64,000 bases of DNA from an uncultured delta proteobacterium (lineage in GTDB: Bacteria; Desulfobacterota; Binatia; Binatales; Binataceae). A program made the translations under genes and the position numbers. Positions 8,928 to 18,294 of this stretch are shown here, piece by piece. The notes below the pieces were generated by a model. That model worked only from the letters and a program-made list of their open reading frames with translations, had not been told where the DNA came from and made no database searches. The stretch is from the NCBI GenBank assembly GCA_963789835.1, contig CAWBMF010000004.1, positions 128,319 through 192,318 of the forward strand, written 5' to 3'. Each line of letters starts with the position of its first letter. Positions within the stretch are counted from its first letter, which is position 1.

Positions 8928-10409
8928 TCATTTCGCGCAACTGATTCTCTCACTTTTTCTGCACCTCAACTTGCCGACACCCTCGAGCTTGACGCTCTTG
9001 TCCGCGCCCGACTTGAGGTTGGTCTCAATGATCAGCGTGCCGCGATATTTCTGCGCTGCCCCCGGCGTGAAACTCACTGAGATCTCGCAACTGTCTGCAG
9101 GGATGCCCTTGCCTCCCGGGCCGAGGTCGTCGCCGTCGCAGGTTTCCTGAGTGATGTTGAATGGGTTGGTAGCGCCGGTTTCCCCTTCGATGAGGATCGG
9201 TAGCGGAACTCTTTTCCTTTTAATCCTGCCGGCGTTGGTGAGTTTGACCGACTTGATGTTGCCGGCGATTACAACTCCGACTTCGACAGTACCGAAGTTG
9301 AGCGTCTTGGGCTGGACGTCGAGCTCGCCGGGCACCGGCGTCAGCGTTGCGGTCGGCGTCGGCGTCGCAGTCGGGCTCGGGGGCACGAAGACTTCGACGA
9401 CGTTGGTTGCTGTGTCGCCCGTCGTGTCGACGGCCCCTCCAAGCGTCCAAATGCTCGTAACGCCCTGGTCCGGGGAGGCCAAATTGCTCGGAGCGACTAC
9501 AGCGGCCAGACCCCATCGCGCGGTTGGCATGGAAGGTTCCGTCGCCCAGCTATCGGCCGTCGGATCGTAGGCTTCGACCGTGGCCAATGGAGAACCGTCC
9601 GCACCACGGCCGCCGATCGCGTAGAGCAATCCGTTGAATGCCAGCACGGCGAGGTCAGCCCGCGGCGTGGGCATCGACGCCTTCGTTGTCCAACTGTCGC
9701 TGGTCGGGTCGTACGCCTCAAGAGTCGGCAGGGCAGCACTGGAGCCATCACTCCCGCCCGCGGCATAGATGGTGCCGTTGATCGTGTCGGCGCCAAAATC
9801 CGAACGGGGCGTAATCATCGGAGCGCCGCTGCTCCAGGAATTGGTTGAACGGTTATAGATCTCGAGCACGCCGGTCACGCTGCTGCCGGTGTTTCCGCCC
9901 ATGACGTAAAACAAGCCGTTGTCGAAATCGAATGCCCCTGCAGGTTCTTGTCTAGCAGTCGGCATCGAGGTCAGCGTCAACCAGACAAAAGGTATTTCCA
10001 TTATCGAGAGCGTCGCCACCGGGCCTGAGCCATCGTTGCCTCCCGCAACGTAGAGCACGGGTAAATTTCCATCAGTCGGATCGAAGCCCGAAGCATAAGC
10101 GGGGCTGGTTTGAAGACTCGGTAGCGGAGGTTTCGCCTCCCAGCCGCCTTCTTGTTCGGGGGAGATGGCACATTCAAGACAGGAATAAGCGCTTTCGGTG
10201 TTTCCAAAGCCGGGACTGAAGCCGCCTGCGTCTACCACCTCGCCGTCTGAAAGGGTCGCGGCCGACCAGTATCGCGCATCCGGCGTTGTTGGAAATTCCT
10301 CCCAAGTGCCGGAGACAGAGGGTGCGGAATTACTGTGCGATGGAATCGGAGCGTAAAGAACCGCGATCGCGATCGCTACTGCAACGAGCGCGATTATTCG
10401 CTTCACCAT
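8928..10409 (-). CDS. secreted Kelch-repeat beta-propeller protein with C-terminal choice-of-anchor-D-like domain
   Basis: Signal peptide. Repeated x-Y-x-x-G-G Kelch motifs (YVAGG, FYVMGG, IYAAGG, LYAIGG). P/T linker. C-terminal LNFGTVEVG..VKLTNAG..C..C..VKLEGVG module. Confidence 0.8.
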   Translation of the reverse strand: MVKRIIALVAVAIAIAVLYAPIPSHSNSAPSVSGTWEEFPTTPDARYWSAATLSDGEVVDAGGFSPGFGNTESAYSCLECAISPEQEGGWEAKPPLPSLQTSPAYASGFDPTDGNLPVLYVAGGNDGSGPVATLSIMEIPFVWLTLTSMPTARQEPAGAFDFDNGLFYVMGGNTGSSVTGVLEIYNRSTNSWSSGAPMITPRSDFGADTINGTIYAAGGSDGSSAALPTLEAYDPTSDSWTTKASMPTPRADLAVLAFNGLLYAIGGRGADGSPLATVEAYDPTADSWATEPSMPTARWGLAAVVAPSNLASPDQGVTSIWTLGGAVDTTGDTATNVVEVFVPPSPTATPTPTATLTPVPGELDVQPKTLNFGTVEVGVVIAGNIKSVKLTNAGRIKRKRVPLPILIEGETGATNPFNITQETCDGDDLGPGGKGIPADSCEISVSFTPGAAQKYRGTLIIETNLKSGADKSVKLEGVGKLRCRKSERISCAK

Positions 10410-10624
10410 CGAAGCATCCCCAGAAAACCATTGGAGCGTTGAATCAACTCCAATGTAGACCGAGAGTTATCAGAAATCTATCGCGCGGAACGATCGAAGG
10501 AAAAAAATTGCGCGAGACGCGAGGCGGGCGCATACAGCGGGACTTAACCCGGATGCTCCGCCTGGTCCCGCGCTCGCGCAAGGGTCAAAGGCGAAAAACG
10601 AAAACGAAAGCGTTCTAGCTCTCG

Positions 10625-10948
10625 CTAGTCACGCCATCGCGCCCAGTCATGATGATGTGCGCGTACCCAGTCCGGATGATGGTCGTACCACCATGCGCGA
10701 TCATGCCAGACGTGGGCTTCGTCGTAGTCGCCGTCATAGACGCGCCACTCGGGATATACCGCGACCCACTCGGGATGATGGTAGTAAACCCAGCCGGGAT
10801 GATTTTCATGCCACCAGTGCGCGTCATGCCATTCGTGATGCGCGTCCCAATCGCCGTAATGATCATAGTGATCCGCATAAGCTGCCACCGGCGCGGCGGC
10901 GAACAGCGCAGTCAGAGCGGCGCCGGCGAGAAATGTTCGGAGTTTCAT
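10625..10948 (-). CDS. secreted His/Trp/Asp/Tyr-rich mini-protein (putative periplasmic metal-binding protein)
   Basis: Signal peptide MKLRTFLAGAALTALFAAAPVAAYA. GGAGGT ribosome-binding site. Mature ~82 aa with ~17 His and ~13 Trp, and repeated HHP[DE]WV / HWWH motifs. Confidence 0.6.
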   Translation of the reverse strand: MKLRTFLAGAALTALFAAAPVAAYADHYDHYGDWDAHHEWHDAHWWHENHPGWVYYHHPEWVAVYPEWRVYDGDYDEAHVWHDRAWWYDHHPDWVRAHHHDWARWRD

Positions 10949-11174
10949 TGCTGATACCTCCTTCGAAGCGAGCGATCCTCTGTGGGGAAATACCTCACGT
11001 GATCAATACGATGCATTCGCAATGCCAGTTTCACGCGCGGATAAAGCCTAGAAAATTTCACGAATCTTCGCCGAGATGAGCCGCGTTTCAGCGATGCGGC
11101 TCTGCAAAATCTTCAGACTGCTGGTATTGCTCTGCGGTGGAGCTTGAGACTTACGAAAGTGTAAGGAATAGAGA

Positions 11175-11498
11175 ATGAAGCTTTGTCACACGGCCGCGCT
11201 CACGCTCGTCGGATGGTACCTGCTCATTCCGCCGGTGTTCAGTCCGATGGGCGAGCATCACCGATCTTTCAACGACCTGACTGCGCCGCTGAACAAGTGG
11301 GATATCTGGGCGAAGTTCGACTCACAGGCGAGTTGCGAGAAAGAGAAAGAAAAACTGCGGAGCCAGGCGCCGCCGCGCATCAAGTTCGCAACCGAACATC
11401 CCGATGAGGATCCGAACGGCAACATTCTCGCCGTATCGCAGGCATGGCAGGTGGCGGATTGCGTGTCATCCGAGGACCCACGTCTCAGGCCGCAGTAG
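11175..11498 (+). CDS. small secreted hypothetical protein
   Basis: AGGAAT ribosome-binding site 8 nt upstream of the ATG. N-terminal hydrophobic signal-like segment. 107 aa with no family match. Confidence 0.5.
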   Translation: MKLCHTAALTLVGWYLLIPPVFSPMGEHHRSFNDLTAPLNKWDIWAKFDSQASCEKEKEKLRSQAPPRIKFATEHPDEDPNGNILAVSQAWQVADCVSSEDPRLRPQ

Positions 11499-11525
11499 AA
11501 GGCCGGGCAAAAGAATAAGTTCGAA

Positions 11526-11966
11526 TCAGTGAGACGGACTCTTCTCGCCGGCTGCGGCGGGAGGTTCCGGTGCTCCCGAGGCTTCCCACGCCGCCATGTC
11601 TGAGTACTCGCGGAACCGGCAAATCTGGCCGTCGCGAAAGATAAAGATTTGGACCCAGCTGGTTTTGACCAGCCGGCCGGTCGCGCGGATCACATAGCGC
11701 GCGGAGCCTTCGACGACCAGGTTGTCGCGGCCGGAGATGAATTCCTCCGGCTCGAACCTTTGAATATCCAGCAACTCAAAGAATTTGCTGCCGTAGCGCT
11801 CGAACTCCTTCAGGTTGTGACACCAGGCACTTCCCGGCCATTTGCCGGCGACGGCGTCTTTCCAATCAACGTCGTCGGTCAGCAGTTTCAAGATCGCGGG
11901 AAGGTCTCGATCGTTAACCGCCTGGTAGAAGCGCTTTGCGGTCTGAAGATTTTTTTCTTCGTTCAT
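11526..11966 (-). CDS. SnoaL-like / NTF2-like fold protein
   Basis: 146 aa with typical ketosteroid-isomerase-like N-terminus (AKRFYQAVNDRDLPAILKLLTDDVDW). Confidence 0.65.
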   Translation of the reverse strand: MNEEKNLQTAKRFYQAVNDRDLPAILKLLTDDVDWKDAVAGKWPGSAWCHNLKEFERYGSKFFELLDIQRFEPEEFISGRDNLVVEGSARYVIRATGRLVKTSWVQIFIFRDGQICRFREYSDMAAWEASGAPEPPAAAGEKSPSH

Positions 11967-12101
11967 CGCAAACCTCCGGAAATCCGCGGAGTCGTTTTTC
12001 AGCGACGTGTCACGCCTGATTGTTTACACCTCCTGCACGGTCAAGGTCCACGGTGAATCCGGCCGCGACCGATTGGCGTACTGACAGGGCAGGGGGACTA
12101 A

Positions 12102-12503
12102 GTGAAAATCATCGGCTTACTGGTCTTGGCGTTCGTGATGTCCGGATGCGCGGCGCTGGCGGCGCCAGGGATCGAAGGCGCGGCGTCGCTCGCCGGCATG
12201 GCCGGAAATTCCGCGACCGGCTACATGTCGACGCACTCGAGTATCGAGCTGAATGCGGCCAACGTCGAGTTGGTGCGCGCGCAGGCGCAGATGCAGAAGG
12301 TGCAGGCTGACGACTTGCGCAGCAAGCGCGAAGAGCTCGAGAACGAGCGCGCCGCCACCGTCGGCATCCTGCGCGAGATGGCGATTGCGCGCGAGGATCC
12401 AACGCTCGCCGACGTGGCGCTGTGGGTGCAGGCCGGCGGCGACCCCGACTACGCGATGCACTACGCACTCCAGGGCCCGCCCAAGACGATCGCAAAGGAA
12501 TAG
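12102..12503 (+). CDS. hypothetical lipoprotein
   Basis: Lipobox LAFVMSGC following a GTG start. Coiled-coil-like charged body. No family match. Confidence 0.5.
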   Translation: MKIIGLLVLAFVMSGCAALAAPGIEGAASLAGMAGNSATGYMSTHSSIELNAANVELVRAQAQMQKVQADDLRSKREELENERAATVGILREMAIAREDPTLADVALWVQAGGDPDYAMHYALQGPPKTIAKE

Positions 12504-12647
12504 CGAGTCCAGCGTCATCTAATCGCCGATTTTGATCGGCAACCCAAATGCTCCCCTTAAGCCATCGGCTAACTGGGGCTTGGCCCGTTCGCCTGAATCT
12601 AATATATGACTTAGAAGGCTCTCTAAGTAATTCATTGAAGGTTCACG

Positions 12648-13550
12648 ATGGCGGGTGTGGAAAGCGGCATTTTGGCTCTTTTTGTGGTCGCATTGTTTGC
12701 GTCGACCGTGAACGGGGCGCTCGGTTACGGGTTCTCGTCGCTGACGGTTCCCCTCGCGCTGTTTTTCTTTCCAAACAAAATTCTCAGCCCGGCACTCGTG
12801 CTGGTCGAACTGGCGATCAACTCGTGGGTGGTGGTGCTGAACCGCGAGAGTTTAAAGGTCGCGCGATGGCGCGCGTTGCCCATCATCATCGGCCTCGTTC
12901 CCGGCATCCTCATCGGCAGCTTTCTGCTGACCCACGCGAACCCGGGCGTGCTCAAGTTCTGGACGTATGTTGTTCTGCTTCCGCTCATTCTCTCGCAGGC
13001 CGCCGGCTATCGGCGACCGATTCGCGCCGAGCGCGCCGCGGGCGTGCCGCTGGGGGTGGGAGTCGGGGTGCTCTACTCGACCACGACTATCTCCGGACCC
13101 CCGCTCGCACTGATGTTCAACAATCAAGGCGTGGAGAAGACTGAATTTCGCGCGGCACTCGGAACCGTTCGAATCGTCGAGACCACGCTTACGACGATCG
13201 TCTACGCCTTCCTCGGGCTCTTCACCTCGCGGAGCATTCACCTGCTGGTGCCGATCGCTCCGGCCGTGCTGCTGGGGCTTCCGCTCGGGACCTACGTGAT
13301 CCGGCATGTGCCGAACGAGGCGTTCCGGCGCGTCTGCATGAGTTTCGATGCGTGGATAGTGGGGTTCGGACTCGCGAGGACGATTCTCGAGCTGCGGCTG
13401 CTGAGCCCGTCGGGAGCCTACAGCATCTGGGGCGCCGTGATTCTTTTCGATCTCTACCTGCTCTACCGCTACTTCGTCATGGGCCACGTTCATGCTCGAA
13501 TCGAAAGCCTCTCTCTGCACGGCACTCCAGCCACAGCCGAAAAAAATTGA
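12648..13550 (+). CDS. TauE/SafE family sulfite/anion exporter-type permease
   Basis: 300 aa with 7-8 predicted transmembrane helices and a duplicated 4-TM DUF81 pattern. Confidence 0.8.
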   Translation: MAGVESGILALFVVALFASTVNGALGYGFSSLTVPLALFFFPNKILSPALVLVELAINSWVVVLNRESLKVARWRALPIIIGLVPGILIGSFLLTHANPGVLKFWTYVVLLPLILSQAAGYRRPIRAERAAGVPLGVGVGVLYSTTTISGPPLALMFNNQGVEKTEFRAALGTVRIVETTLTTIVYAFLGLFTSRSIHLLVPIAPAVLLGLPLGTYVIRHVPNEAFRRVCMSFDAWIVGFGLARTILELRLLSPSGAYSIWGAVILFDLYLLYRYFVMGHVHARIESLSLHGTPATAEKN

Positions 13551-13718
13551 CGAGCGCCCGCGCGCCGCGCCGCTGCCTTCGCACAACGGCGTGCGGCAGC
13601 AGGGATACTCCAAATGGAGGTCGCGCTAGTGATTTGATTTCGAGTGTACTATTGCTCGAAGCGTTGTGACGCTGCGCCCGAATGAACGGGAACTTTGGCC
13701 GGGCCGAGGGGAAGTCCA

Positions 13719-14939
13719 ATGAGCCAGGAACCTTACATACTCATCACCGCAGACACTCACGCGGGCGCCAGTCATGCCGGGTATCGCGAATACCTCGATC
13801 CCCAATGGCGCGAGGCGTTTGACGAATGGCGTGGCGGATACAAGAACCCGTCGCAAGAGCACTACGGCTCCAAGAAGATGCGCAACTGGGATTACGGCAT
13901 CCGCAACAAAGATCAGGACAGCCAGGGAGTCGTGGGCGAAGTGGCTTTCCCCAACACGGTGCCGCCGTTCTATCGCAAGAGTATCGTCACCGCGCATCCG
14001 CCGAAGCCGGAAGATTATCAGCGATGCCAGGCCGGCATCCGTGCGCACAATCGCTGGCTGAAGGATTTCTGCGCCGAGGATCCGATTCGCCGCGCCGGGA
14101 TTGGATTGATCCTGCCCAATGACTTCGACGAAGCGATCAAGGATATCGAGTTCATCGCGAAGTCCGGCCTGCGCGGCGGCGTGCTCCTGCCGCTCATCCC
14201 GCCCGACGCCCACTGGCTGAAGCCGCTCTACCATCCGGCGTGGGACCGCGTGTTCGCCGCCATCCAGGACCATGGCCTCGTGCTCAATCAGCATACGGGG
14301 CAGGGCATTCCGGACTACGGCGAGGGCGTGGTGCCGGAATCGATCTGGATCCAGGACGTGACCTTCTACGGTCAAGCCGGCTTTCGGCATCTGCTGATGG
14401 CGGGCGTCTACGAGAAGTTCCCGAAGCTCAAGTACATCCTGACCGAGTCCGGCTGCTACTGGGTTCCCGCGATACTCAAGCAGTGCGATCGCGCCTACTA
14501 CGCGATCAAATCGGGCGCGCTGGGCGAGATGAACTACAAGGGAATGGAAATGCCGCTGAAGGAGCCGCCGAGCGAGTATGCGAAGCGTCACTGCTACTAC
14601 GGCGCGAGCTTCCCGAGCAACGCCGACCTCGCCGGCATCGACGAAATCGGCGAGGATCACGTGCTGTGGGGCAACGACTATCCTCACTACGAGGGCACCT
14701 TCCCCTACAACCTGCAATCGCTGCGACTTACGTTTGGCTCGATGCCGGACGCGCGCCGGCGAAAGATCCTCGGGCTGAACGCGGCGGCGCTCTACAACTT
14801 CGACCTGGAGGCGTTGAAGGCGCGGGCGGCAAAAGTCGGCCCGACACCGGCGCAAGTGGAGACTCCTCTCCCGCGCGAAGAAATCCCCCGCGACAGCGCG
14901 TGTTATCTCTTCCGCGACGCTCTGCAGGAGGCGTCCTGA
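13719..14939 (+). CDS. amidohydrolase-2 (ACMSD/LigW-like metal-dependent TIM-barrel hydrolase or decarboxylase)
   Basis: Start at the internal Met MSQEPYILITADTHAG with a GAGGGGAAG ribosome-binding site. HYEG and WGNDYPH C-terminal motifs typical of PF04909. Confidence 0.75.
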   Translation: MSQEPYILITADTHAGASHAGYREYLDPQWREAFDEWRGGYKNPSQEHYGSKKMRNWDYGIRNKDQDSQGVVGEVAFPNTVPPFYRKSIVTAHPPKPEDYQRCQAGIRAHNRWLKDFCAEDPIRRAGIGLILPNDFDEAIKDIEFIAKSGLRGGVLLPLIPPDAHWLKPLYHPAWDRVFAAIQDHGLVLNQHTGQGIPDYGEGVVPESIWIQDVTFYGQAGFRHLLMAGVYEKFPKLKYILTESGCYWVPAILKQCDRAYYAIKSGALGEMNYKGMEMPLKEPPSEYAKRHCYYGASFPSNADLAGIDEIGEDHVLWGNDYPHYEGTFPYNLQSLRLTFGSMPDARRRKILGLNAAALYNFDLEALKARAAKVGPTPAQVETPLPREEIPRDSACYLFRDALQEAS

Positions 14940-14942
14940 GCC

Positions 14943-15803
14943 ATGGCGATGCCGGCCGGCATCGGGATAGTCGATACGATGATCGGCTTTCCCGCCGAAG
15001 ACTTTAAGATGTACGACTTCATTCGCGCACAGCTTAAAGACCCTTCGGCGAAGTTCGATTTCCCGGTCGAGTACATGTTCAAGAACGTGCCGAAGGAGTT
15101 GTACGGATCGAAGGATCCGATTTCTCTCACGCTGCACGAGATGGATCGGTTCGGTATCGAGATAGGCGTCATCGGCGCCGGCGGAGACGTCTCGGCCAAA
15201 GCGCTCAAGGACCATCCGGACCGGTTCGTCCCGATGGGCAACGTCGATCCGAACCGCGGCATGGACGGAATCCGCGACATGGTGCGGCAGCACGAGAAAT
15301 ACGGCGTGCGCGCTTTCGGCGCATTCAACGCCGGCTACAATCCGCAAGTCGGCATCTCCGACCCGTTGATGTACCCAATCTACGCCAAGTGCGTTGAGCT
15401 CGGCGTTCCGATCTTCGCCTGCGCCGGAGTCCCAGGTCCGCGCTTCCCGATGTGGCCGCAGGAAGTACGCCTGATCGATCAGGTGATGTACGACTTCCCG
15501 GAACTCGTCTTCGTGACGCGTCACGGCTGCGAACCGTGGGAAGATCTGGCCGTCAAGCTGATGCTGAAATGGCCGAACCTCTACTACTCGACCTCCGCCT
15601 TTGCACCGAAGCATTACCCGGAAGCGATCATCCGCTATGCGAACACACGCGGCGCGGACCGCGTAATCTATGCCGGCTACTTCCCGATGGGCCTCTCGCT
15701 AGAGCGAATCATGACCGACATGAAATCGGTGCCCTTCAGCGACAAAGTCTGGCCAAAGTTCCTGCGCGATAACGCCCGAAAGGTCCTGAAGCTCGACGCT
15801 TGA
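14943..15803 (+). CDS. amidohydrolase-2 family protein (second, shorter paralog)
   Basis: Begins 4 nt after the upstream gene's stop. TIM-barrel amidohydrolase-2 like, but lacks an N-terminal HxH (GIVDTMIGFP instead). Confidence 0.7.
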   Translation: MAMPAGIGIVDTMIGFPAEDFKMYDFIRAQLKDPSAKFDFPVEYMFKNVPKELYGSKDPISLTLHEMDRFGIEIGVIGAGGDVSAKALKDHPDRFVPMGNVDPNRGMDGIRDMVRQHEKYGVRAFGAFNAGYNPQVGISDPLMYPIYAKCVELGVPIFACAGVPGPRFPMWPQEVRLIDQVMYDFPELVFVTRHGCEPWEDLAVKLMLKWPNLYYSTSAFAPKHYPEAIIRYANTRGADRVIYAGYFPMGLSLERIMTDMKSVPFSDKVWPKFLRDNARKVLKLDA

Positions 15804-15911
15804 GGGGCTATGATTCGAATAGGCGGTGCCGCGCGACTGTCTGTTTTGACACGCTTTAGCTTGCCTCTTTGCTGCGAAATGCGATATGAAGGATCCGAGA
15901 GGTCATCGCCG

Positions 15912-16319
15912 ATGAAATCCATGAAATCGATTGCTGTCACCGTGGTCGCGATCGCAGCCCTCTGGACTGCCGGACCTGCCAGCGCCGCAGGCAGAGGTGG
16001 CCACGCTGCCGCCGCTACGCGCGGAGTCGGCAGCGCGAACCGTTTCGCCGGCAGTCGGAATGGAGCGTGGATGAGACAGAACAACCGTCGGTTCGCGACC
16101 TCCTTCGGAGGCTTCCCTTACGGATACGGCGGCTACGGCTACGGGAATGCGGTGTACCAGAATCCCGATGAAGCCGACTGGGCGGAACAGTGGCAGTCGC
16201 TGTACGAGGACAACCACGGCGCCTATGCCAAGTCCACCCTTGAAAATCCACAGGGGCCTGCGCGAATGTGGGAATTTCCGCAAGTGCAGGGGGGCGCGAC
16301 CGTAACCGACGAGCATTAG
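15912..16319 (+). CDS. secreted Gly/Tyr-rich hypothetical protein
   Basis: Signal peptide MKSMKSIAVTVVAIAALWTAGPASAAG. GGFPYGYGGYGYGNAVY low-complexity segment. GAGAGG ribosome-binding site. Confidence 0.5.
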   Translation: MKSMKSIAVTVVAIAALWTAGPASAAGRGGHAAAATRGVGSANRFAGSRNGAWMRQNNRRFATSFGGFPYGYGGYGYGNAVYQNPDEADWAEQWQSLYEDNHGAYAKSTLENPQGPARMWEFPQVQGGATVTDEH

Positions 16320-16387
16320 TCGGATGCGCTGCTTCCGCGGCTCGGCGTCGACCTCAGTCACAATCGATATTTTTTCCCGCATCTAAA

Positions 16388-16437
16388 TAGTGGGCGGGGA
16401 GTGAATCCAACACTCCGACACAACGATTTTTAGTTCC
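16388..16437 (-). repeat. diverged copy of the tRNA-Phe 3' half (distal att-like repeat)
   Basis: TGGGCGGGGAGTGAATCCAACACTCCGACACAACGATTTTTAGTTCCAC versus the tRNA 3' half TGGTGGGCAGGGAGTGAATCGAACACTCGACACAAGGATTTTCAGT. Four substitutions and one insertion. It shares the extra GTTCCAC extension with repeat 2. Confidence 0.7.
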
Positions 16438-16483
16438 ACGTTAACTCCCGACATTTCCAATTCTCCGATTTGCATTAGTGAGC

Positions 16484-16515
16484 TATTTGACGCCGTCAAG
16501 CCGCACTGATAGTTG
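16484..16515 (+). promoter_or_regulatory. putative promoter of cassette A (TATTTGACGC -35-like box plus downstream AT-rich -10 candidate)
   Basis: The same 10-mer TATTTGACGC occurs at the equivalent position upstream of cassette B. A GGGAGG ribosome-binding site lies ~12 nt before the ATG. Confidence 0.35.
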
Positions 16516-16552
16516 AGTCGCGACCGCATTTTATCGGGAGGATGGGTAGAAG

Positions 16553-17020
16553 ATGAATCTGAGAGGGAATCTGGGGAGAATCGCGCTGGCAGTGGGGATG
16601 CTTTTGGTCGTCTCCGGGCCGGCATCGGCAAAATCTAAAAAACAGATTTGCTTCGAGGTAAACTCAAACGAATACCTTTTCGTCGGGAAAATTCCTGGGA
16701 AAAACAAATGCGCCTCGTTTCAAACGGTTGACACGTTCGGCATTTTCCCGGGGTTTATGTCAAACGGTGCAGCCTGTGAAAGCGGGGATGGGTCCACGCT
16801 GTTCTTTACAGCCTCCGACGGCTACTTCTCCGGGCCGGAAACCGTTCAGGGATCACTCGCTACCAGTACCGCTACAGGATCCTGTGCAGATTGTGTCGTC
16901 AGTACCTGCTTCGCGGATACTTGTTCCTTGGTCTTCTGTTCCGGGCAGACGATACCGGCGGACGTGATGTCTGGTCCCGCGAGCCTCTTGTCGAGAGGAT
17001 CATCGATGGGCGGCAACTGA
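16553..17020 (+). CDS. small secreted Cys-rich protein (cassette A)
   Basis: Signal peptide. 10 Cys in the mature part. GGGAGG ribosome-binding site. Weak but recognisable similarity to the cassette B protein (K-C-A-S-F-Q-T vs E-C-I-S-F-G-T; G-A-A-C-E-S-G-D-G-S vs Y-G-C-A-C-D-P-K-G-S). Confidence 0.55.
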   Translation: MNLRGNLGRIALAVGMLLVVSGPASAKSKKQICFEVNSNEYLFVGKIPGKNKCASFQTVDTFGIFPGFMSNGAACESGDGSTLFFTASDGYFSGPETVQGSLATSTATGSCADCVVSTCFADTCSLVFCSGQTIPADVMSGPASLLSRGSSMGGN

Positions 17021-17047
17021 CACTCACCGCGGAATCCTCAAGGTCGG

Positions 17048-17081
17048 CACCGACTGGAGTGTGGCTCCTTTCCAGTCGGTG
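17048..17081 (+). terminator. perfect 10-bp stem-loop downstream of cassette A gene
   Basis: CACCGACTGG..(14-nt loop)..CCAGTCGGTG. A T-run (CTATTTTTTTT) lies ~45 nt further downstream rather than adjacent, so intrinsic-terminator status is uncertain. Confidence 0.4.
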
Positions 17082-17143
17082 CCCGGCCTGGCGATTCGCT
17101 GCGCTGACCAGCTCTCTGACAATCTATTTTTTTTCGGGTCTGC

Positions 17144-17189
17144 TGGTGGGCAGGGAGTGAATCGAACACTCGACACAAGGATTTTCAGT
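17144..17189 (-). repeat. 46-bp perfect direct repeat of the tRNA-Phe 3' half including CCA (proximal att-like repeat)
   Basis: Identical to 18219..18264 (anticodon loop through CCA of the tRNA-Phe gene). Confidence 0.85.
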
Positions 17190-17435
17190 TCCACTATAAG
17201 TCATCCACCATTGTCCGTAAGTTGATTCTATCGACGCTTTCTCAGCAGAGGCAGTCCGCCAAAGTGCGCAATGCCCGCCGATGTTCATCGGCTAGGCTGC
17301 ACCTAGACTGCAGACCCGAGGTTCGCGACACCCGCCTCCGTAACGAATCGCGCGCGTAGAACAGATCGAAGAATACGCAACTGGGCGAAGTGTGGTAGCA
17401 GCGCCGGGCGGCATTGCCGCGAGCGTAGCTCGGGT

Positions 17436-17470
17436 TATTTGACGCAAGCGTGGCGGAATGACATATCAGT
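17436..17470 (+). promoter_or_regulatory. putative promoter of cassette B (TATTTGACGC box)
   Basis: Same 10-mer as upstream of cassette A. GGGAGG ribosome-binding site 11 nt before ATG 17492. Confidence 0.35.
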
Positions 17471-17491
17471 GCGCTGGGAGGAATCAAAACA

Positions 17492-17929
17492 ATGCGTAGA
17501 TCAGTCAGTCTGTTGGTAGTGACATTCTCCGTCTTCGCGGTGAGTTTGCTGGCCATATCGTTCTCGGCCAACGCGGGCGGCAATTGCGAGGGCAAACTTC
17601 TCGGCAACTCTTACGAATGCAACTACGTAAACAGCGAAGGCGGTTCGGGGAGCGAATGCATTTCGTTTGGCACCGGGGTGTTCTCGGTTCATTTCGACGC
17701 CGGGTACGATGGCACAGACGAATATGGTTGCGCATGCGATCCGAAGGGCTCCAAGAAATCGCCTTCGTTCAACGCTTCTTCAAACACCTACCAGTGCACG
17801 TCCCCCTCATCTCCTTCTTATTTGCTGAGTGGAACGATAAAGGGCAAAAAGGTTACTGAACAGGGCCTTGAATCGGACGGCTTCCAATACGTCGAAACCT
17901 GCGAGCTCAGGTCTTCGCCTTGCCCCTGA
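17492..17929 (+). CDS. small secreted Cys-rich protein (cassette B)
   Basis: Signal peptide MRRSVSLLVVTFSVFAVSLLAISFSANA. 9 Cys. Paralogous to the cassette A protein. Confidence 0.55.
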   Translation: MRRSVSLLVVTFSVFAVSLLAISFSANAGGNCEGKLLGNSYECNYVNSEGGSGSECISFGTGVFSVHFDAGYDGTDEYGCACDPKGSKKSPSFNASSNTYQCTSPSSPSYLLSGTIKGKKVTEQGLESDGFQYVETCELRSSPCP

Positions 17930-18218
17930 CCTGAATCGAGACCATTTCGGCTAAGGCGGAGAAAGCCGGGTCTTGCCTAGGCGCAGTTCGGCGAAAGAGG
18001 CGTGTCGCAGGCGGGCGTCCAGCGTCCACTCCAGGAAGTCGATGCGACGACTATCCGCGGCTTGAGCCAGCGGCACGCCTTCATCTTGTCGGCTGTGACC
18101 CCGGTTCCCCAGCGGCCTTTCGACGCATCCGGCAGATTTGAGAATGGACACGCGGCCGGTTTCGAGGCCGTAGGCTGCAACTTAGGCTGCGGGACTCCCT
18201 CAAAAGGGCAAAAAGTGT

Positions 18219-18294
18219 TGGTGGGCAGGGAGTGAATCGAACACTCGACACAAGGATTTTCAGTCCTTTGCTCTACCGACTGAGCTACCTGCCC
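18219..18294 (-). tRNA. tRNA-Phe (anticodon GAA), CCA encoded
   Basis: Reverse complement folds as GGGCAGG-UA-GCUC AGUCGGUA GAGC A AAGGA CUGAAAA UCCUU GUGUC GAGUG UUCGAUU CACUC CCUGCCC A CCA. Very close to E. coli tRNA-Phe in the D and T arms. Confidence 0.9.

Follow-up and report, generated by a model that had tools for sequence, protein, structure and literature searches.

An apparently sigma-54-controlled, predicted periplasmic His/Trp-rich protein and an unannotated Trp-repeat family in Binatia

Introduction

Several groups of described proteins can be compared with a small exported protein that is rich in both His and Trp. His-rich storage and buffer proteins, such as Hpn and Hpn-like of Helicobacter, the tails of UreE, HypB, CooJ and SlyD, and the loop of ZnuA, are for the most part found in the cytoplasm, consist largely of low-complexity or disordered sequence and are not enriched in Trp. 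Among the periplasmic copper proteins, Trp is used, for example, by CusF, where it makes a cation-pi contact with Cu(I), and by MopE/MbnP, which employ a Trp-derived kynurenine ligand, while RcnB/YohN take part in periplasmic Ni/Co homeostasis. ZraP of Escherichia coli and Salmonella, a member of the CpxP/Spy LTXXQ family, carries His- and Trp-containing terminal motifs. Here, we describe a short gene for a His/Trp-rich protein, referred to as HW, which lies in a stretch of 64,000 nucleotides (nt; hereafter the window) from an uncultured delta proteobacterium of the Binataceae, namely positions 128,319 to 192,318 of contig CAWBMF010000004.1 in assembly GCA_963789835.1. Binatia are abundant uncultured soil and peat bacteria, the envelope biology of which is little known.

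The gene of the periplasmic zinc-binding chaperone ZraP is sigma-54/ZraR-dependent and responds to zinc and to envelope stress (PMC4987338). Like ZraP, HW is a small, in this case predicted, exported protein, and its gene has a candidate sigma-54-type promoter, but no LTXXQ, CpxP or Spy match is obtained even at E ≤ 1, the predicted fold is a different one (a hairpin plus short helices, twice), no sensor/regulator pair is adjacent, and the content of His and Trp is far higher. With the Hpn-type buffers it shares a very high content of His and acidic residues as well as a His number that is kept though the positions vary, whereas its His are carried by a Trp-core repeat for which a fold is predicted with confidence, and it starts with a predicted signal peptide. 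HW resembles CusF and MopE/MbnP in combining His and Trp in a periplasmic (for HW, predicted) protein, but it matches no copper family of Pfam and has no mbn, cop or cus genes nearby; moreover, the lack of Met and Cys argues against Cu(I) binding. RcnB/YohN are likewise small exported proteins, but HW has neither a Pfam RcnB match nor an adjacent rcnA-like exporter. The Pfam and NCBIfam models for CusF, RcnB, CopC/CopK, PcoE/SilE, HMA and ZinT gave no match to HW at permissive thresholds. HW thus fails the profile tests for known families, and its sequence places it in an unannotated repeat family. We rate it as a predicted exported His-rich protein, putatively of the stress/metal type, apparently under sigma-54 control and on a new scaffold.

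A conserved gene for a predicted exported His/Trp-rich protein

HW encodes a precursor of 107 amino acids (aa), which consists of MKLRTFLAGAALTALFAAAPVAAYA followed by DHYDHYGDWDAHHEWHDAHWWHENHPGWVYYHHPEWVAVYPEWRVYDGDYDEAHVWHDRAWWYDHHPDWVRAHHHDWARWRD, with predicted cleavage between the two parts, after A25. Inspection by eye identifies a signal peptide with a positive n-region (MKLR), a hydrophobic core and the sequence VAAYA ahead of the first mature residue, D, and with neither a lipobox Cys nor twin Arg. This segment is nearly invariant across the homolog alignment, the A-Y-A found here being A-H-A in orthologs. HW is predicted from these features to be a Sec-exported non-lipoprotein, and its location is presumably periplasmic. 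The mature part of 82 aa (~10.8 kDa) contains 17 His (21%), 13 Trp (16%), 13 Asp, 8 Tyr and 5 Glu and is built from 11 amino-acid types only, with no Cys, Met, Leu, Ile, Phe, Lys, Ser, Thr or Gln. The computed net charge is +5 at pH 5 and -12 at pH 7, with a pI of 5.6. The window contains 400 stop-to-stop frames with a length of 80 aa or more, among which the HW frame is the extreme outlier, with 24.8% His plus Trp as compared with 11% in the next-richest frame and a median of 3.8%. The original prediction, made from the letters of the DNA, had given the reading frame, the signal peptide, the mature length and the counts of His, Trp and Asp exactly, and its description of a composition far outside the normal range agrees with this top rank. 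The recurring motifs to which it had drawn attention (HHPEWV, HHPDWV, HWWH and three occurrences of WH[DE]) are all present and result from an internal duplication, as they belong to a 30-aa repeat that is present twice, at aa 32-61 and aa 73-102. A Cu/Ni-binding N-terminus of the XH/ATCUN (amino-terminal Cu(II)- and Ni(II)-binding) type was considered, since His stands at position 2 or 3 here and in several homologs, but some homologs start with RNY or RDY, and no claim is made.

A word-indexed search of 5.8 billion proteins returned 29 close homologs, all of them called hypothetical and one of them from a Candidatus Binatus metagenome-assembled genome (MAG). A scan of 185,579 species genomes, with one genome per species, yielded 79 loci, which are labelled as Binatus, as Binataceae or as unclassified "delta proteobacterium" or "Proteobacteria" MAGs, with the addition of one "Terriglobales" contig. 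About 21 of these loci hold orthologs with 66-86% identity, and the orthologs span more than 20 Binataceae MAGs. When HW of the window was codon-aligned with 21 orthologs, the nonsynonymous rate (dN) was 0.09-0.21, the synonymous rate (dS) ~0.9-2, which is saturated, and the dN/dS 0.03-0.18, the median over 204 pairs being 0.12 for the mature part. All Trp and 7 of the 17 His (H12, H13, H25, H32, H33, H54 and H74, mature numbering) are at least 90% conserved, so that the concern of the original prediction that the His and Trp positions might not be conserved is not borne out. In the mature proteins of the orthologs, the number of His ranges from 14 to 18 and that of Trp from 12 to 16, while Cys, Met and Leu never occur. 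HW is a real gene under purifying selection and part of the conserved core genome of Binatia. The chance that it is a spurious frame arising from antisense or GC-rich sequence, as its shortness, its odd composition and the several overlapping frames might suggest, is practically nil and this reading is already refuted by the conservation pattern, given the low dN/dS, the conserved start codon, ribosome-binding site (RBS), signal peptide, promoter and terminator, and the 162 representatives of the family.

Some database copies (P0025-P0029, from loci L003-L005 of the ENA ERZ25039xxx assemblies) are frameshifted or truncated and read into an alternative frame (TTIIPSGS...); as all come from one assembly set, they are probably assembly errors and not pseudogenes. 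The 3.8-kb contig labelled Terriglobales (L014, JBAWBE010000539.1) carries an HW ortholog with the same sigma-54 motif and with Binatus-type neighbors, a PNPOx-like gene and x162 (described below), and is probably mis-binned, hence not evidence of the family in Acidobacteriota.

The Trp-repeat family and its predicted structure

A profile built from 17 mature sequences was searched against 1.84 billion representative proteins and found 162 proteins at E ≤ 1e-3, 65 of them at E ≤ 1e-10. With a hidden Markov model (HMM) of the repeat, 775 repeats were detected in 258 proteins, and the HW protein itself contains two highly significant copies (Table 1). The unit comprises 30 aa and can be written as G-D-[YFW]-D-x2-H-x-W-[HR]-[DP]-A-x-W-W-x4-P-x-W-V-x2-[HN]-H-P-[ED]-W. 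Its conservation is 100% for G1, 82% for D2, 92% for D4, 67% for H7, 98% for W9, 95% for W14 and 99% for W15, followed in the second half by 77% for the Pro, 88% for W22, 96% for H27, 87% for P28 and 100% for W30; position 10 is [HRY], with His and Arg exchanging. Mutual information within the repeat mostly reflects the structure of the subfamilies.

The repeat occurs in several architectures, namely the two-repeat mini-protein represented by HW, single-repeat lipoproteins with a lipobox Cys, proteins of 170-430 aa that have an additional helical domain at the N-terminus and in many cases end in a poly(His-Gly/His-Asp) tail (HGHGHGHGHD, HDHDHDHD or HHHHHDHD in the sister subfamilies), and secreted paralogs of 480-790 aa from the same Binataceae genomes, in which 8-11 HMM-detected tandem repeats precede Gln/Glu-rich tails. 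In the long paralogs (L036-L074, e.g., L036 5707-7629 and L072 3634-6003), the repeats read HPEWWGDFDDxHxWRPAGWWWQNxPDWVR..., and the Gln/Glu/Arg-rich tails, which are probably coiled-coil regions, have Gly-rich ends. Degenerate repeats of these paralogs (GDYYQGxWYPA...) have lost D4, H7 and [HR]10 together. The N-terminal domain of P0068, P0077 and their relatives (the N-terminal halves in L030-L035) shows repeated NPxLxxNPxYxxxHPxLxxYLxxHPxV motifs.

The number of Trp per repeat is 5.9 in the HW ortholog group as compared with 5.3 in the rest of the family, whereas the number of His is 7.45 versus 3.48, the additional His having been gained largely from Asn and Gln. Because Trp is equal across the family and His is doubled in the HW group, Trp is the fold scaffold family-wide, and the His load is an overlay specific to the small HW subfamily, in which most solvent-facing Asn, Gln and Arg positions of the family became His. 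The Trp enrichment stressed in the original prediction is therefore real, while its unusual character is now explained by a scaffold that all members of the repeat family share.

Searches of Pfam-A at E ≤ 1 assigned no family to HW, and the family members likewise carry no Pfam domain or name; NCBIfam gave only a chance SSB match (13.6 bits against a cut-off of 54), and a profile search of the PDB at E ≤ 10 only chance matches. A literature search on His/Trp-rich periplasmic proteins or Binatia brought up no relevant papers, only reviews of antimicrobial peptides. Named proteins of the family come from Candidatus Binatus only, and most metagenome matches carry no taxon. By these searches, the repeat family is apparently previously undescribed and, so far, Binatia-restricted.

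AlphaFold2 modeled HW with a predicted local distance difference test score (pLDDT) of 82 from 17 sequences, and with a pLDDT of 87.4 and a predicted template modeling score of 0.68 from 36 more diverse sequences, in which case all five models agreed at a pLDDT of 85-87. In the model, each of the two units is formed by a beta-hairpin and the short helices that come after it, and repeats 1 and 2 have the same secondary-structure pattern; a Foldseek comparison with the PDB returned nothing at E < 7. Since aliphatic Leu, Ile and Met residues are lacking, we infer that Trp, Tyr, Val, Ala and Pro form the core, and further that D2 pairs with [HR]10 across the hairpin and that His-Pro starts the helices, which would make these polar residues structural.

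The HW transcription unit

Alignment of the 300 nt upstream of HW in 25 orthologs shows that these regions have mostly diverged, except for four blocks: AGGAGGT, TGAAACTGGCATtNtCGATGCNTCGT, an A/T-rich block and CTGTAGATtTT.C. The first is the RBS, nearly invariant in the alignment, and the strong GGAGGT noted in the original prediction is thereby substantiated. Sigma-54-dependent promoters have the -24/-12 consensus TGGCAC-N5-TTGCW, with GG and GC 10 nt apart, and need an activator ATPase. The HW upstream region contains CTGGCAT-N5-ATGCA, 64 nt upstream of the start codon, with precisely this spacing, and the motif TGGCAY-N6-TGCW has its single match in the whole window at this place. The promoter block, TGAAACTGGCAT..CGATGC.TCGT, is nearly invariant in the 25 orthologs despite their diverged flanks. 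HW thus appears to be switched on by a signal-dependent sigma-54 promoter and, because such a promoter needs an activator ATPase, would be made only upon a signal to the activator.

Approximately 85 nt further upstream lies the conserved core CTGTAGATtTT.C, which is part of an element that is unique in the window, where 0.03 chance matches are expected, and which is a candidate enhancer, i.e., activator-binding site. At about -108, the window sequence looks like a TCTG-N9-CAGA dyad, but conservation in the orthologs is confined to the left half, and the dyad is not claimed. The A/T-rich block between this element and the promoter could, as a guess, be a DNA-bending site like that of integration host factor (IHF). 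No sigma-54 activator gene is adjacent to HW in ~25 orthologous loci; two Binataceae loci encode such activators, of the NtrC type and the GAF type (Sigma54_activat domains, E = 1e-70), and rpoN, looked for among the locus sequences examined, was not found.

At the 3' end, a hairpin and T-run (GACTAAC-GAGA-GTTAGTC plus CGTTTTCGTTTT) that overlaps the stop codon is kept in most orthologs. It is followed by a second, long hairpin of ~78 nt, for which the consensus fold of 17 orthologs comprises 29 pairs with -39.5 kcal/mol, an invariant outer stem and three pairs with double changes. This hairpin occurs once per locus, always after HW, and has stayed with HW in the window despite the insertion of a Kelch gene downstream. 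It may serve as a strong second terminator or give rise to a small structured RNA from the 3' end; Rfam has no match around HW, this hairpin included. A hairpin in the 5' untranslated region that was seen by eye was dropped, as RNAalifold predicted no consensus structure. From its sequence signals, HW looks like a monocistronic, sigma-54-dependent gene that ends at its own terminator.

Motifs resembling -24/-12 elements also precede three other subfamilies of the repeat family or their operons, namely operons that start with a Gly-zipper lipoprotein (L028, L029, L070 and L085), operons for proteins with the N-terminal domain (L030-L035 and L086, with OmpA-domain lipoproteins following in L086) and a single-repeat lipoprotein (L080). 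What is presumed to be the enhancer region varies from one subfamily to the next, each having a conserved block of its own, such as GGTAAAAATTACC in L028, L070 and L085. The OmpA-domain lipoproteins carry poly-Pro linkers, and some operons hold a small protein that equals the N-terminal domain alone.

Possible functions of HW

The reading that we favor, tentatively and with rather less than even confidence, is that HW is a sigma-54-induced periplasmic buffer for divalent metals or protons, or a stress protein, which would be ZraP-like in its logic and unrelated in sequence. A signal would activate the activator ATPase, the sigma-54 promoter would fire, and Sec export of the product would deliver the 82-residue protein to the periplasm. 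There, the invariant Trp, Pro and Gly residues would build a compact fold of a beta-hairpin and short Pro-initiated helices, twice, which would display a dense surface of ~17 His and ~18 Asp/Glu, free of Cys and Met. This surface could reversibly bind several divalent ions (of the Zn, Ni, Co or Cu(II) type) and/or protons, so that HW would act as an envelope buffer or stress protectant. Metal buffering, which the original prediction had considered, is plausible and finds support in the His-Gly/His-Asp tails of the sister subfamilies and in the fact that zraP is sigma-54-driven as well; the His count, kept at 14-18 in all orthologs, also counts in favor of the buffer, as do the titratable charge of HW, with its computed swing from positive at pH 5 to negative at pH 7, and the occurrence of sigma-54 activators in Binataceae. 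It is doubtful, when taken as a whole, that the 30-residue Trp-core repeat is a new fold that marks Binatia-specific, sigma-54-controlled envelope proteins and that its His-saturated member is a new folded periplasmic metal/proton buffer of high capacity, in which ~17 His and 18 carboxylates are presented otherwise than in a disordered His tract. The Trp/Tyr array of HW might add cation-pi contacts or redox chemistry by electron/hole transfer.

Several observations weigh against the buffer. At ten of the 17 His positions, the orthologs vary, and His is replaced there by Arg, Asn, Tyr, Pro or Gln, not by other metal ligands, while the residues D2, D4, H7 and H27, which are conserved family-wide, can be explained structurally, as cross-strand pairs of the hairpin and as helix caps. 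The genes that share operons with the sister subfamilies encode envelope lipoproteins of the Gly-zipper and OmpA types, and none is a metal gene. Beside HW, the orthologous loci have no gene for a metal transporter, a metal sensor or an activator in common; a P-type ATPase lies ~5 kb from HW in L003 only, with unrelated genes between. Finally, many of the source habitats are acidic peat or soil, where most His would carry a proton and bind metals poorly.

Some of the same observations would fit a different role, in which the repeat is a module for envelope structure or ligand binding (peptidoglycan, polysaccharide, aromatic ligands or envelope proteins) and HW a soluble periplasmic adaptor or competitor, whose His would make binding pH-switchable and would not serve metals. 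This role, which we consider rather unlikely, would account for the long paralogs with 8-11 repeats and coiled-coil-like Gln/Glu-rich tails in the same genomes, for the sigma-54 operons in which sister members stand with envelope lipoproteins, for the invariance of Trp and not His across the family, for the His/Arg exchange at repeat position 10, and for the reversal of the computed charge between pH 5 and pH 7. However, it leaves unexplained why 14-18 His are kept in the HW subfamily alone and why the sister subfamilies have His-Gly/His-Asp tails, and the repeat shows no similarity to the carbohydrate- or peptidoglycan-binding repeats of Pfam.

It is improbable that HW, in the manner of ZraP or CpxP, serves a two-component system or a sigma-54 activator as an accessory or feedback protein. 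HW would then modulate the sensor of its own promoter and may chaperone misfolded envelope proteins, with metal as a cofactor and not as cargo. The sigma-54 promoter with its conserved upstream elements, the NtrC-type response regulators with sigma-54 domains in Binataceae and the precedent of ZraP itself (PMC4987338) are in line with such feedback; against it, neither a sensor nor an activator gene is adjacent in the ~25 orthologous loci, HW has no sequence relation to the LTXXQ/CpxP/Spy/ZraP family, and the upstream elements differ between subfamilies. That HW binds a tetrapyrrole such as haem in the periplasm, with His/Tyr as axial ligands and Trp stacking, is very improbable: the composition rich in His, Tyr and Trp would suit it and the N-terminal domains of P0068 and P0077 have weak matches to the haemophore family MHB (PF16525; E ~3e-3, 17.7 and 18.5 bits against 27.4), but these matches do not reach the threshold and the domain concerned is absent from HW, HW itself has no MHB match, and no haem-uptake genes are found near HW.

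Genomic neighborhood and features of the window

The conserved gene order at the locus is tRNA-Phe, HW, a PNPOx-like gene, x162 (a frame of 146-162 aa on the strand opposite to HW), DUF155, a dienelactone hydrolase (DLH) gene and DUF885; this order is conserved in more than 20 Binataceae MAGs, with its downstream part fixed in the relatives and kept in the window. In the window, a gene inserted between HW and the PNPOx-like gene (8928..10409, minus strand), which is present in no orthologous locus, encodes a secreted Kelch beta-propeller protein of 493 aa with a C-terminal Ig-like domain. A functional link between HW and the PNPOx-like gene was rejected, as insertions separate them in the window and in L025; because the PNPOx-like gene is absent from 4 orthologous loci, the two are regarded as neighbors and not as partners.

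In many orthologs, tRNA-Phe lies ~250 nt upstream of HW. The window has it at 18219..18294 on the minus strand, with gshB and then rsmE next in the ancestral order, and the ~7 kb between tRNA-Phe and HW (~11130-18218) are a lineage-specific insertion that contains genes for a SnoaL-like protein, a lipoprotein, TauE and two amidohydrolases (Amidohydro_2), none of which is present at any relative's locus. At ~17144, 30 nt or more of the 3' half of the tRNA are present as a second copy, which marks at least one old integration event, and an integrase island occupies the same tRNA-Phe/HW spot in one relative (L004). The divergent frame that the original prediction had placed beside HW (11175..11498, plus strand) exists, but it is part of this insertion and no relative has it beside HW, so that the suggested link is not supported and the frame is regarded as an incidental neighbor. 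The cupredoxin-less accessory block next to which the original prediction had placed HW is not supported as a copper-related one either; no copper- or cupredoxin-related genes were found near HW in the window. The repeat HMM found no second member of the family in the window. The coordinates of the HW gene and its signals are compiled in Table 1.

Table 1. Positions of the HW gene and its associated features in the window.
Feature	Position	Strand	Description	Basis
HW coding sequence	10625..10948	-	107-aa His/Trp-rich precursor; TAG stop = 10625-10627	ORF (open reading frame) list, homologs, dN/dS
Signal peptide, predicted Sec-type, aa 1-25	10874..10948	-	MKLRTFLAGAALTALFAAAPVAAYA; predicted cleavage after A-x-A	Inspection
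Repeat 1, aa 32-61	10766..10855	-	GDWDAHHEWHDAHWWHENHPGWVYYHHPEW	Repeat HMM, domain E = 2e-12
Repeat 2, aa 73-102	10643..10732	-	GDYDEAHVWHDRAWWYDHHPDWVRAHHHDW	Repeat HMM, domain E = 6e-13
RBS GGAGGT	10956..10961	-	7 nt before ATG	AGGAGGT (nearly) invariant in 25 orthologs
Sigma-54-type -24/-12 element	11012..11027	-	TGGCATTGCGAATGCA; predicted transcription start near 11001	GG/GC 10 nt apart
A/T-rich conserved block	11042..11069	-	Columns aAGAT..cTGAtTTTTCGCGaTTTTc; between upstream element and promoter	
Upstream element, candidate enhancer	11101..11117	-	TCTGAAGATTTTGCAGA; ~108 nt before predicted start	Core CTGTAGATtTT.C conserved
Terminator-like hairpin, then T-run	10593..10626	-	Overlaps stop codon	Terminator scan
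Long hairpin (~78 nt) plus T-run	10497..10581	-	45 nt after HW stop	17-ortholog consensus fold

Significance

With 21% His, 16% Trp and 11 amino-acid types, HW is among the most compositionally extreme folded proteins that are likely to be met, and its gene brings to light a repeat family that lacks annotation, is modeled with confidence and has no relative that could be detected in the PDB. If metal binding proves true, HW would represent a new small, foldable, multi-site metal scaffold, relevant to metal homeostasis in acidic soil and to protein design. If it proves false, the family would still be a sigma-54-controlled set of envelope genes for studying signal-dependent regulation in this phylum.

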